Shown one piece after another: positions 25,745-41,800 of a stretch of DNA of 64,000 nt. The stretch is from assembly GCA_018816985.1 (NCBI GenBank), contig JAHIVA010000049.1:2466-66465 (forward strand), given 5' to 3'. The DNA is from Patescibacteria group bacterium (GTDB taxonomy: Bacteria; Patescibacteriota; Minisyncoccia; Phycocordibacterales; UBA9973). The stretch's first letter is position 1. Each line of letters starts with the position of its first letter. The translations under genes and the position numbers were made by a program. The notes below the pieces were generated by a model. That model saw only the letters and a program-made list of their open reading frames with translations. It did no database searches and was not told where the DNA came from.

Positions 25745-25790
25745 TCCCTATGTCGGACTTAGGGGAATTCCCCTAAGTCCGACATAGGGA
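25745..25790. repeat. Family A palindrome copy 1 (46-bp perfect palindrome)
   Basis: TCCCTATGTCGGACTTAGGGGAA / TTCCCCTAAGTCCGACATAGGGA. It fills the rplR-rplF spacer. Confidence 0.9.
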
Positions 25791-26807: not shown

Positions 26808-26851
26808 CCTATGTCGGACTTAGGGGAGTTCCCCTAAGTCCGACATAGGGT
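26808..26851. repeat. Family A palindrome copy 2 (44 bp, central mismatch)
   Basis: CCCTATGTCGGACTTAGGGGAGTTCCCCTAAGTCCGACATAGGG in the rpsH-rpsZ spacer. Confidence 0.9.
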
Positions 26852-32406: not shown

Positions 32407-32456
32407 GTTCCCTAAGTCGAACTTAGGGGAAATCCCCTAAGTTCGACTTAGGGAAC
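32407..32456. repeat. Family A palindrome copy 3 (24-bp arms, 2-nt centre)
   Basis: GTTCCCTAAGTCGAACTTAGGGGA-aa-TCCCCTAAGTTCGACTTAGGGAAC in the rplW-rplD spacer. Confidence 0.9.
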
Positions 32457-33781: not shown

Positions 33782-34240
33782 CATCATTTTCACATCAATA
33801 TCAACACCAGAAGGAAGAGTTAAATTAGTCAAAGCTTCAACGGTCTTAGGATTTGGATTGATGATATCAATTAATCTTTTATGCACTCTTATTTCAAATT
33901 GTTCTCGACTATTTTTGTAGATAAAAGCAGAACGATTAACTGTATATTTTTTAATTTCAGTTGGGAGTGGCACCGGACCTACTATCTGCGCATCATAACG
34001 AATAGCAGTGTCTATAATTTGTTTGACTGAGCTGTCAAGTATTTTACTTTCATAAGCTCGTACCCGAATGCGAAGTATCACCTTATTCTCACCTCCGACG
34101 ACATGAGTAGGTTTCTCTTTTTCTTTTTTTGAAGAAACTCTCGGTGTCTTAGGTGCTTTTACGGTTTTCACTGTTGTGGTTTTTGCCACTTTAGGTTTTT
34201 TTGTTTTTGTTTCTGTTATTGCCATGAACTTTTTCTCCAT
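33779..34240 (-). CDS. rpsJ: 30S ribosomal protein S10 with a Lys-rich N-terminal extension of about 50 aa
   Basis: The core is [25 protein letters not shown]...GPVPLPTE. The start is at 34240 or 34225, and the first ATG lies inside the palindrome. Confidence 0.85.
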
Positions 34241-34279
34241 AAGTTAGACTTAGGGGAATTCCCCTAAGTCTAACTTATG
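34238..34279. repeat. Family A palindrome copy 4 (42-bp perfect palindrome)
   Basis: CATAAGTTAGACTTAGGGGAA / TTCCCCTAAGTCTAACTTATG in the tuf-rpsJ spacer. Confidence 0.9.
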
Positions 34280-40317: not shown

Positions 40318-40566
40318 ATGAAAACATGCATGGTAACAAAAAAAAGTTCAATCGTCGGAGGCGGATATTCTAATAGAACCCGTGCCACTAAATTTAACCC
40401 AACTGGCAAGAAAAGAAAATACCCCAATCTTCAAAAGAAGAAGCTTTTTGTTCCTGAACTAAATAAATCAATCAATATAGAAGTTAGTCCCCGCGGCATG
40501 CGTACCATGAAAAAGCGTGGCACCTATGCCACGCTTCTCAAAGCTGGACTTATCCAAGCAAAATAA
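40318..40566 (+). CDS. rpmB: 50S ribosomal protein L28
   Basis: MKTCMVTKKSSIVGGGYSNRTRATKF..PNLQKKKLFVPE matches the L28 pattern. Confidence 0.8.
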   Translation: MKTCMVTKKSSIVGGGYSNRTRATKFNPTGKKRKYPNLQKKKLFVPELNKSINIEVSPRGMRTMKKRGTYATLLKAGLIQAK

Positions 40567-41026
40567 AAAAATCCCCATTTGGGGATTTTTTTATTTTTTG
40601 TTTTTTGTTTTTTTCTTTCTCCTTAGTTAAAATTTCATTTACTCTCATATCCCTATCGTCATATTTTACCGGAACCTTGTCTCCGATGTTATATTTTTCA
40701 TAATCTTCTTTTAATATAGAAAAAGAAGTTTCCAACTCTTTTATCTTTAAAATTATTATCCACTCTTCTGGATGTGGAACAATTACTGAAATTTTTCCTG
40801 CCATCAGTACTTGGTTAGATGGTTCCTCATGATTTTTCTTCACAATTACCGCTTCTCCTTGTTTTTCATGCTCCTTTCTTTCAGCAGAATCATTTTTCAA
40901 AAACTTATCAAACTTATAAGCCCCAGCAGCAATGGCACCCACGGCCACTGCACCCACTCCCAAATTTTTTAAGAATTCTCGACGATTCATTTTGTTATCA
41001 TTTTGTTTTGGTAAACTTTCTTTCAT
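40550..41026 (-). CDS. Hypothetical exported protein with a twin-arginine-type signal peptide
   Basis: MNRREFLKNLGVGAVAVGAIAAGA fits the (S/T)RRxFLK consensus. The start may be M13 (40990). Confidence 0.5.
   Translation of the reverse strand: MKESLPKQNDNKMNRREFLKNLGVGAVAVGAIAAGAYKFDKFLKNDSAERKEHEKQGEAVIVKKNHEEPSNQVLMAGKISVIVPHPEEWIIILKIKELETSFSILKEDYEKYNIGDKVPVKYDDRDMRVNEILTKEKEKNKKQKIKKSPNGDFFILLG
40565..40592. terminator. Bidirectional intrinsic terminator (AAAAAAATCCCC-attt-GGGGATTTTTTT)
   Basis: Perfect 12-bp stem immediately after the rpmB stop. It lies inside the 3' end of the convergent ORF. Confidence 0.65.
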
Positions 41027-41065
41027 ATAAGTAATTATAACAAGGCGAATTCAATAAGCAACCAA

Positions 41066-41800
41066 CTGTCAAACATCGGGTGTTTGACAGTTTAATCAAT
41101 CTAAAACAAGCTCGTCTTTAATTTCTTTTGCTCCACTGGTTTCTACAAAACTTTTGTATTCTTTTCTGTTTTTAAACTGTTCTATGATAATCCCAGTCTC
41201 TAAAAGACTTCCCCATCGATTTTCTTTAACATAATCTTGGTAACTTGACCACGGAAAACTTTCCTCTTTTCTACGCCACTCATTTAATTCTCTTGAGTTT
41301 AAGTGTACATAAGCAGAAAGATGTAAAAGTTGTTCATTGCTTTCAACGTGAACAGCTTTATAAGGACCCTCAAAAAGATGCCCGGAAACACCATAACGCG
41401 CATTAAAATATTTTGTATAAGAATTTAAAACTCGTTGCATATATTTTCCTATTCCTCTTTCTTTTATTTCTTTTACAATAAGATGAAAATGATTGGGCAT
41501 TAAAGCAAAACCGGTTAATTCCACAAATTTTTTTGTAGTCAAATCACTTTTGATGTCAAACACCCGATGTTTGACATATGAAGATATAATTCTAGAAATT
41601 TGCGGAAAATTATTTTCTGTTTGAAAATATAAAATCAAGAAAAGAAACCTAGCTCGATCCCTATCGTCTTTTAAAATTATCTTTTTCCCTACTCCTCTAT
41701 TGTAAATATGATAATACTCGTTCACTGAAATATTATCTCGGTTCATGAGTTAATTTTATACCAAACAACATGTAACTGTCAAACATCGGGTGTTTGACAG
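41066..41800 (-). mobile_element. IS200/RAYT-like unit: Y1 transposase gene bounded by two identical 25-nt hairpins
   Basis: CTGTCAAACA-tcggg-TGTTTGACAG occurs at 41066-41090 and 41776-41800 in the same orientation. An inverted copy TGTCAAACA-cccga-TGTTTGACA lies at 41554-41576 inside the ORF. Confidence 0.65.
41096..41746 (-). CDS. Y1 HUH transposase (IS200/IS605 TnpA / REP-associated tyrosine transposase-like)
   Basis: YHIYNRGVGKKIIL and the HUH motif MPNHFHLIV. Candidate catalytic Tyr region is NSYTKYFNARYGVSGHLFEGPYK. Confidence 0.75.
   Translation of the reverse strand: MNRDNISVNEYYHIYNRGVGKKIILKDDRDRARFLFLILYFQTENNFPQISRIISSYVKHRVFDIKSDLTTKKFVELTGFALMPNHFHLIVKEIKERGIGKYMQRVLNSYTKYFNARYGVSGHLFEGPYKAVHVESNEQLLHLSAYVHLNSRELNEWRRKEESFPWSSYQDYVKENRWGSLLETGIIIEQFKNRKEYKSFVETSGAKEIKDELVLD

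Follow-up and report, generated by a model that had tools for sequence, protein, structure and literature searches.

Repetitive extragenic palindromic (REP) sequences and the REP-associated tyrosine transposases (RAYTs) that go with them are mainly known from Proteobacteria and Cyanobacteria, and to our knowledge both the movement and the role of these systems are still unsettled. The closest described relative of the system treated here is the Escherichia coli REPtron, built around the HUH enzyme TnpA_REP (also called RAYT or YafM; structure 4ER8) and its cognate palindromes (PMC2817692, PMC3333891, PMC3479197). Subclass 2.1 of these enzymes, or TIRYT, has been reported to lack REP-like hairpins, with terminal inverted repeats at most, and a helix-turn-helix tail is usual (PMC6006769, PMC3733652). 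REPs within genes have also been described, as has the occurrence, in related species, of different REPs at roughly one site of a gene (PMC3733652). The survey of Quentin et al. 2018 (PMC6006769) mentions no Patescibacteria sequences, and the literature on REP, RAYT, IS200 and palindromes in the Candidate Phyla Radiation (CPR) or Patescibacteria gave us no description of the family, or of the fixed intragenic site, reported here. We analysed 64,000 nt of a Patescibacteria group bacterium (GenBank assembly GCA_018816985.1, contig JAHIVA010000049.1, positions 2,466 to 66,465; hereafter the window, numbered from its first letter), in which the gene for a predicted Y1 HUH nuclease of the RAYT class is bracketed by two copies of a palindrome and carries a third within its own reading frame. 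By identity and by anatomy, this 735-bp unit is probably a REPtron-like RAYT cassette with three private palindromes at fixed places.

Results

A Y1 gene with three copies of one palindrome

The gene (Table 1) is an intact open reading frame (ORF) of 216 codons, with the motif YHIYNRG at residues 12-18 and MPNHFHLIV at residues 83-91, just as a preliminary description of this DNA had reported. That description had also placed identical 25-nt hairpins on either side of the gene and a loop-inverted, in-frame copy inside it, and all three are present. The palindrome CTGTCAAACAtcgggTGTTTGACAG stands at both 41066-41090 and 41776-41800, and the identical direct repeat in fact extends to 27 nt (AACTGTCAAACATCGGGTGTTTGACAG, 41064-41090 and 41774-41800); the internal copy, TGTCAAACAcccgaTGTTTGACA, occupies 23 nt at 41554-41576 and keeps the reading frame. 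Written as stem and loop, the palindrome has the form TGTCAAACA-N5-TGTTTGACA. We refer to the upstream, internal and downstream copies as U, I and D. These are the only three sites in the 64 kb when the 23-nt pattern is searched with up to three mismatches, and 100 dinucleotide shuffles gave none. Folded as DNA hairpins, the three copies reach -9 to -12 kcal/mol (z = -4.4 to -5.9), with U at -10.4 kcal/mol and D at -12 kcal/mol (z = -5.9). In gene orientation, U begins 4 nt past the stop codon of a DEAD-box helicase gene and ends 29 nt before the ATG.

Table 1 Coordinates of the Y1 cassette and of related palindromes in the window
Feature	Position	Strand	Basis or remark
Y1/HUH nuclease gene, RAYT/TnpA_REP class	41096..41746	-	216 aa; ORF, Pfam, profile-versus-PDB search, AlphaFold, Foldseek
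Upstream palindrome U	41774..41800		27-nt repeat identical to 41064-41090
Internal palindrome I (ATGTCAAACAcccgaTGTTTGACAT)	41553..41577		In frame; centre at codon 61; residues 57-65 (YVKHRVFDI)
Downstream palindrome D	41064..41092		29-nt perfect palindrome; starts 3 nt past the stop codon
Predicted promoter of the Y1 gene	41753..41782	-	TTGACA 41782-41777, 18-nt spacer, TAAAAT 41758-41753; consensus match only
HUH motif codons H86-F87-H88	41483..41491	-	Translation; N85, H86 and H88 invariant in 77 family members
Codon of presumed catalytic Y146, motif SAYVHLNS	41309..41311	-	Y146 and N150 invariant; aligned with the YIYINP region of 4ER8
tuf-rpsJ spacer palindrome	34238..34279		42 nt; CATAAGT-TAG-ACTTAGGGGAATTCCCCTAAGT-CTA-ACTTATG; C8 inverted doublet, not part of the window cassette
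Other ribosomal-operon palindromes	25755-25780, 26816-26841, 32419-32444		Similar C8-type doublets

The encoded protein is nearest to TnpA_REP

A search with the Pfam model Y1_Tnp (PF01797), which the preliminary description had put forward as a check on its assignment, matched the protein above the cutoff of 23 bits (35.9 bits, E = 9.3e-9). The protein belongs to a very large Patescibacteria family, with some 1,950 relatives at E <= 1e-10. In an alignment of 77 family members, N85, H86, H88, Y146 and N150 are invariant; Y146 is presumed to be the catalytic tyrosine and N150 a metal ligand. The tyrosine motif is of the class 2 type, Y-x-x-x-N, where class 1 has Y-x-x-x-Q. It reads YVHLNS in the window protein and YIHRNP in the family consensus, the N being invariant and the P replaced by S in the window copy.

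When profiles were searched against the PDB, E. coli TnpA_REP (4ER8) was the best match at 3.6e-4, with ISDra2 (3.6e-3) and the IS608 and IS200 transposases behind it. The AlphaFold model of the window protein (predicted local distance difference test score, pLDDT, 91; predicted template modelling score 0.89) likewise gave 4ER8 as its top Foldseek hit, at 9.5e-6, all others being at 6e-4 or weaker. Helix alphaA (28-40) and strand beta2 (75-82) are separated in the model by about 30 residues more than in TnpA_REP. Within this stretch, the peptide encoded by the palindrome covers the end of a helix (50-60) and a loop (61-66); with a pLDDT of about 70 it is the lowest-confidence internal part of the model. 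The motifs NHFH, LFEG/LFQG, Y[IV]H[LR]N[PS] and WSSY resemble those of subclass 2.1 in Table 1 of Quentin et al. 2018 (PMC6006769), a likeness judged by inspection and not from a tree. On these comparisons, the predicted protein is a Y1 HUH nuclease in which both the HUH motif and the catalytic tyrosine are intact, and its nearest solved relative is E. coli TnpA_REP and not IS200. The preliminary description's view of a REP-associated enzyme bracketed by cognate hairpins was thus well founded, and its likening of the unit to an IS200 was not: the 735-bp length is coincidental, given the Y-x-x-x-N motif, the 216-residue length, the best match to 4ER8 and the want of identical copies.

An internal palindrome at a fixed codon across the family

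We fetched 80 loci from other genomes, whose products are 35-80% identical to the window protein and whose annotations include Nomura-, Zambryski-, Giovannoni-, Vogel-, Kaiser- and Moranbacteria and bins labelled Saccharibacteria, among others. Together with the paralogs of the host genome, this gave 83 loci with a detectable flanking hairpin, so that the genes of relatives carry hairpins too. At 55 of the 83, the palindrome of the locus's own flank (17-nt core, at most one mismatch) was found again within the ORF; random re-pairing of hairpins and ORFs, repeated over 2000 permutations, gave 2.3 matching loci on average and never more than 9. Nearly all loci of the main clade have the centre of the internal copy at codon 61, in phase 1 (site A). 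A sister clade carries it directly after the HUH motif (site B) instead of at codon 61, and at one further locus (L075) it lies at about residue 151.

The palindromes themselves differ from locus to locus (TGTCAAACAC, TGTCCAAAGC, TGTGCGACAC, TGAGCAACAT, CCGAAACT, CGTAGGTGTC and TGAAAGAGGC are examples), and the internal peptides change with them (VKHRVFD, VQSRALD, VRHRVSH, EQHRMLL, DRNLVSD, VGVGHLR, ERGFASF). Across 54 internal sites, 94.7% of stem cells are paired, counting Watson-Crick and wobble pairs, and two-sided changes occur in 10 of 10 stem pairs. Compensated cells number 111, compared with 31.8 in column shuffles, none of 500 shuffles being as high, and pairing falls to 29-46% when the partner column is slid. 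Since compensatory changes affect all ten stem pairs, it is the DNA palindrome that dictates these roughly nine codons.

On the gene tree, site A can be traced to the deepest branches and is ancestral to a large clade; where it has been lost, it has decayed in place with no deletion. Under relaxed detection, the flanks and I both matched at 41 loci, neither at 20, the flanks only at 13 and I only at 6, which corresponds to an odds ratio of about 10 if kinship is ignored. As far as these comparisons go, U, I and D evolve in concert: their sequences change together between lineages, and the pairing of I is kept while its peptide changes wholesale. The preliminary description had considered the internal copy an unusual feature of this gene. 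Read across the family, it is instead an ancient, built-in, position-fixed element that covaries with the flanks, and the window gene has undergone no recent self-insertion. In a near-complete congener assembled in six contigs (G007), most paralogs likewise have private hairpins, and one of them has a site-B internal copy.

The 3' end of the gene can also be involved. In L001, L002, L048 and L046, the last part of the ORF runs into the downstream palindrome, and in the first two of these the D arm provides the stop codon (..DCQTSDV*, with TGA inside TTTGACA), so that there the palindrome writes the C-terminus as well. Some family members (L066, L072 and L080) come from contigs assigned to bins named 'Nanoarchaeota archaeon' or 'uncultured Gammaproteobacteria', and many others are labelled Saccharibacteria; the oddly labelled contigs are probably mis-binned or mislabelled Patescibacteria and not real transfers.

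Promoter context and level of constraint

The right arm of U provides the -35 hexamer, TTGACA, of the predicted promoter, whose TAAAAT ends 6 nt before the ATG at 41746, and 11 of 12 positions agree with consensus. Across the family, a TAnnnT ends 5-9 nt upstream of the start codon at 64 of 93 loci, and its spacing from the 3' end of U has two modes, about 0 (U adjoins the -10 box) and 15-18 nt (the arm of U falls at -35). U therefore probably sits in the core promoter of the Y1 gene, and the mRNA is probably leaderless, as judged from these spacings. Both U and D score as terminator-like, U on the minus strand, and at 24 loci the start of D falls between -1 and +2 nt relative to the stop codon.

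Mismatches of the G.T and A.C kinds occur at 17:9 in I, 13:13 in U and 8:10 in D, and the four possible patterns of loop orientation among U, I and D are about equally common (10, 8, 8 and 7 loci). As mismatch types and loop orientation are strand-symmetric, the constraint on the palindrome appears to act on DNA and not on RNA. The orientations of the three window copies are as the preliminary description gave them. We dismissed orientation as a signal, given that the family uses all four patterns with similar frequency, and attach no special meaning to it.

Paralogs and dispersed palindromes in the host genome

The window comes from a metagenome-assembled genome (MAG) of 1.02 Mb in 136 contigs, with 36.8% G+C. 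A tblastn search recovers about 14 paralogs from it, which share 32-53% identity with the window protein. For most of them, a perfect palindrome private to the gene ends 11-30 nt upstream of the ATG and recurs at the stop codon or across it. No perfect flanking hairpin was detected for paralogs C25 and C97, the latter a protein of 336 residues with an extended C-terminal tail. A third copy is found at about codon 61 in the window gene and in C111_1352. In four paralogs of one clade (C8, C83, C107 and C67_10874) it lies at about residue 93, after the HUH motif, as an insertion of 7-8 residues relative to sister paralogs.

Outside the cassette, the palindrome of the window recurs at three further genomic sites, which answers the genome-wide count that the preliminary description had called for. 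One is intergenic, 163 nt upstream of paralog C64. Another (C129:7890-7912) lies in frame close to the beginning of an ORF of 310 aa, where it encodes SVKHRMFDS, 27 nt past the preceding stop. It falls within the first 15 codons of the annotated ORF (MENLPNESVKHRMFDS..), and is either an in-frame N-terminal insert or a sign that the true start codon is further downstream. The remaining copy is in frame within pyrF (C89:3808-4623; NVKHPMFDT). Of the six other PyrF sequences recovered from the genus, five have no such extra residues; in the sixth, from congener G003 (G003:C20:21002-21802), another palindrome, TTGTAGACGTCGGACGTCTACAA, occupies this surface loop of the protein. Two congeneric species thus carry in-frame palindromes of 21-23 nt in pyrF. 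The G003 palindrome also flanks a Y1 gene of that genome and occupies codon 61 of that gene, and a 38-nt inverted doublet of it (G003:C21:4669-4706, L120) lies, apparently in frame, in an ORF resembling leucyl-tRNA synthetase (LeuRS; ..PLVFCEN[insert]AGWVPVPDKD). In these cases, then, each dispersed palindrome has a matching Y1 gene in the genome that carries it. For most palindrome types we counted 0-3 dispersed copies; that of paralog C8 is the richest, with 13 copies including nine doublets. In the host genome, two inverted doublets of the C67_16096 hairpin were found and none of the window's own palindrome.

Origin of the ribosomal-operon palindromes

The hairpin of paralog C8, TTCCCCTAAGT-cta-ACTTAGGGGAA, stands on both flanks of and inside its gene (C8:613-637, 930-954 and 1348-1372), and its palindrome, TTCCCCTAAGTCTAACTTAGGGGAA, is distinct from the window type. 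The nine doublets are arm-swapped palindromes, that is, inverted repetitions of this hairpin, and four of the nine are the ribosomal-operon palindromes of the window (Table 1). The 25-nt C8 hairpin matches 34234-34258 and 32407-32431 with three mismatches, where no match is expected, and the tuf-rpsJ slot is empty in most same-genus genomes. The preliminary description had speculated that the window enzyme or its relatives spread these elements, and for relatives this is supported. Its argument for the idea, a shared arm pattern GTYRRAC, is spurious: GTCGGAC and GTTAGAC consist of the 3-nt loop and arm ends of a C8-type hairpin and are unrelated to GTCAAAC, the arm of the window palindrome. 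We therefore rejected that link.

Inheritance and mobility of the cassette

A Candidatus Nomurabacteria MAG (L002) has an ortholog of the window gene in the same gene order, DEAD-Y1-rpmB-site-2-protease-rpsL. The Y1 gene and the helicase are both 80% identical between the two genomes, and this equal divergence in shared synteny argues for vertical descent of the cassette. The synteny, with protein identities of 80-91% to L002, also places the host among the Patescibacteria. In other congeners, rpmB and the helicase gene are separated by unrelated inserts or by a spacer of just 52-55 nt that contains a bidirectional terminator, and none of the empty slots holds a solo palindrome of the window type. 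Among 40 relatives searched, 24 of them of the same genus, the family has 0-12 copies per genome, all of them open reading frames; with the host included, the range is 0-14 in genomes of 0.4-1 Mb.

The host genome holds no near-identical paralogs, the closest pair being 53% identical, and at the window cassette we found no target duplication, guide-like flank or duplicated gene end. Given this, and the patchy presence of cassettes, they are evidently gained and lost over evolutionary time without behaving like proliferating insertion sequences, so far as genome comparison can tell. The only near-duplicate pair seen is in G007 (L131; G007:C3:96856-97350 and 99118-99612), where two Y1 copies with 226-aa ORFs and identical search scores lie 2.26 kb apart; a perfect-stem scan found no matched cognate hairpins flanking them. 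Viral contigs gave one weak family match only, which leaves carriage by phages unsupported. Short homologue contigs, such as one of 704 nt that ends in the D loop and one of 909 nt that ends at the stop codon, were not used as evidence of mobility, because assembly breaks at repeats explain them equally well. The contig collection has no record with the exact window protein.

Directly downstream of the cassette is an orphan ORF of 158 aa (40550-41026, minus strand) with a textbook twin-arginine signal, NRREFLKNLG. It is missing from the syntenic L002 locus and from congeners, and so appears to be variable cargo of the slot between rpmB and the helicase gene.

Discussion

By analogy with TnpA_REP and REP, the palindrome would be the cognate binding and cleavage substrate of the enzyme encoded between its copies. 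Enzyme bound at U would then repress its own promoter, and I would be an additional cognate site, acting as an auxiliary operator, a roadblock or a site that anchors the enzyme in cis. I is kept far longer than passenger insertions, though it can still be lost, and U and D would double as terminators and insulators toward the neighbouring genes. We regard a self-regulatory role of U and I as a tentative possibility that falls short of an even chance.

Several observations weigh against reading the unit as a REPtron-like cassette of this kind. The NCBIfam equivalog model for RAYTs (NF047646) scored weakly, at 23.9 bits against a cutoff of 80, which on sequence grounds makes the window protein a distant member of the RAYTs and no equivalog of the proteobacterial ones. 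The window palindrome has only six copies genome-wide and does not form a REP-like population of tens to hundreds. Its perfect strand symmetry differs from the strand-specific substrates of characterised Y1 enzymes, and there is no 5' GT[AG]G guide of the REPtron kind: neither GTAG nor GTGG was seen, and the feet are TGT...ACA or others and symmetric. In several lineages (L032, L059 and L036, for example) I has been lost while U and D stay perfect; I is dispensable. Finally, with an estimated contamination of 8%, the count of 14 paralogs possibly pools two strains.

The main rival explanation concerns the internal copy, and we hold it to be a serious one, though less likely than not: I may be a tolerated in-frame hairpin insertion in a permissive surface loop, with no function, kept identical to the flanks by overwriting by the enzyme, local gene conversion or template switching. 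In-frame hairpins also occur in unrelated genes (pyrF and the LeuRS-like ORF), the internal copy lies elsewhere in the sister clade and in L075, it is dispensable in several lineages with intact U and D, it decays along with the flanks, it encodes the least confident internal stretch of the model, and subclass 2.4 tnpA_REP genes offer a precedent (Quentin et al. 2018, PMC6006769). Yet site A keeps the same codon and phase over many lineages of the CPR, even where protein identity has fallen to 35-40%. The pyrF insert, by comparison, is found in only two of seven congeners that have the gene. In the close clade of the window gene and L001-L003, moreover, I does not differ between members although the loops of U and D do, so frequent overwriting from the flanks is unlikely, and that two clades fixed an internal copy independently hints at some advantage. 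A more far-reaching proposal, which we think unlikely, is that codon 61, the PyrF loop and the intercistronic spacers are fixed slots that the resident Y1 enzyme overwrites with the palindrome it recognises, their length unchanged, and that this tie of self-recognition lets a dozen orthogonal pairs coexist in less than 1 Mb. If so, hairpin replacement would be catalysed by the Y1 enzyme, in effect as site-specific gene conversion, and the slot within the ORF would tie the enzyme to its own gene through autoregulation or cis-anchoring.

The other readings are less likely. That the palindromes are stem-loops of the mRNA (terminators, 3'-end stabilisers or translational pause sites) whose similarity is a by-product would fit the terminator-like scores of U and D on the coding strand, the position of D beside the stop codon at most loci and the known effects of REPs on mRNA stability and termination (PMC3733652). 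It is nonetheless improbable: G.U wobbles are not favoured over A.C mismatches, loop orientation is random relative to the gene, U overlaps the -35 and -10 of a leaderless-type promoter and hence lies outside the gene's own transcript, and the lineage-specific sequence common to all three sites is left unexplained. We consider it slightly more improbable still that the unit is an autonomous IS200-type element, with U and D as the subterminal left- and right-end hairpins for single-strand 'peel and paste' of 735 bp. The size of about 0.7 kb, the Y1_Tnp match and a hairpin at each end all speak for it, as do presence or absence at the rpmB/DEAD slot among congeners, the patchy copy number of 0-14 per genome and the homologue contigs that end at hairpins. 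On the other side stand the divergence of the host paralogs, none of them near-identical; Y-x-x-x-N in place of Y-x-x-x-Q, 216 residues as against about 150, and a best match to TnpA_REP 4ER8 (PMC6006769, Table 1); the syntenic L002 ortholog, which has diverged like its neighbour gene; palindromes that are perfect and strand-symmetric, without distinct left and right ends; and the window cassette's lack of a target duplication or guide-like flank. Hardly any weight falls on the idea that the palindromes are operators for another, host-encoded dimeric DNA-binding protein and that the Y1 gene merely belongs to its regulon. Perfect strand-symmetric palindromes overlapping promoters would suit such a protein, but some 14 paralogs, each with a different palindrome that travels with its gene across genomes, would need a matching set of host factors, and palindromes also occur within ORFs and as doublets between operon genes.

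Read as a REPtron-like cassette, the family presents its presumed substrate typically three times per gene, so that cognate pairs can be read from the sequence. It would thus be a natural library of probably orthogonal pairs of HUH enzyme and hairpin, of use for HUH-tag chemistry and for following the evolution of DNA-hairpin specificity. It is also a clear case of a DNA structure, not protein function, dictating a stretch of amino acids, and it suggests where the palindromes between cistrons, and the in-frame inserts in essential genes, of these reduced genomes come from.

Comparison with known systems

Auxiliary operators within coding sequence are familiar from lac O2 in lacZ and gal OI in galE. 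There too a palindrome within an ORF matches a promoter site; the difference is that the presumed binder here is a nuclease and not a repressor. With the IS200/IS605 TnpA proteins (IS608, ISDra2), the family shares the Y1 HUH fold and hairpins that serve as subterminal recognition elements, whereas their Y-x-x-x-Q motif, length of about 150 residues, many near-identical copies and distinct left and right ends on one strand are none of them found here. The intragenic REPs and Rickettsia palindromic elements (PMC3733652) resemble the in-frame repeats in pyrF and the LeuRS-like ORF in being short and in lying in housekeeping genes, but the inserts described here are of 23 nt (or 42-nt doublets) and can each be assigned to a resident Y1 gene.

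Among RAYTs, subclass 2.1 is alike by inspection of its motifs (NH[YF]H, FQ/FE at the 'W' position, Y[IV]HLN[PS] and the SS tail motif, here WSSYQDY) and differs in that the Patescibacteria family has hairpins at both ends of the gene and inside it. Subclass 2.4, from Cyanobacteria and Bacteroidetes, shares in-frame REPs within its own tnpA_REP and symmetric 'double-foot' REPs (PMC6006769). Here, by contrast, the site has a single fixed codon position ahead of the HUH motif, is old and covaries with the flanks, and the WQ and YIxNNP motifs are not present. The likeness is greatest with the E. coli REPtron: an HUH enzyme with Y-x-x-x-N(P), which is the best match in sequence and fold, cognate palindromes that bracket the gene, single-copy gene types each with its own repeat family, and inverted doublets between genes like those called REPIN or BIME (here of the C8, C67_16096 and G003 hairpins). 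Where REP stems are bulged, those of the present family are perfect and strand-symmetric, and where REPs run to hundreds of copies, each type here has 3-13. The enzyme has about 30 residues inserted between alphaA and beta2, a cognate copy lies inside the ORF, and up to 12-14 orthogonal systems share a genome of less than 1 Mb. The kind of system, RAYT or REPtron, is thus already known; what is new is the fixed, covarying intragenic palindrome and the many orthogonal copies in each tiny genome.

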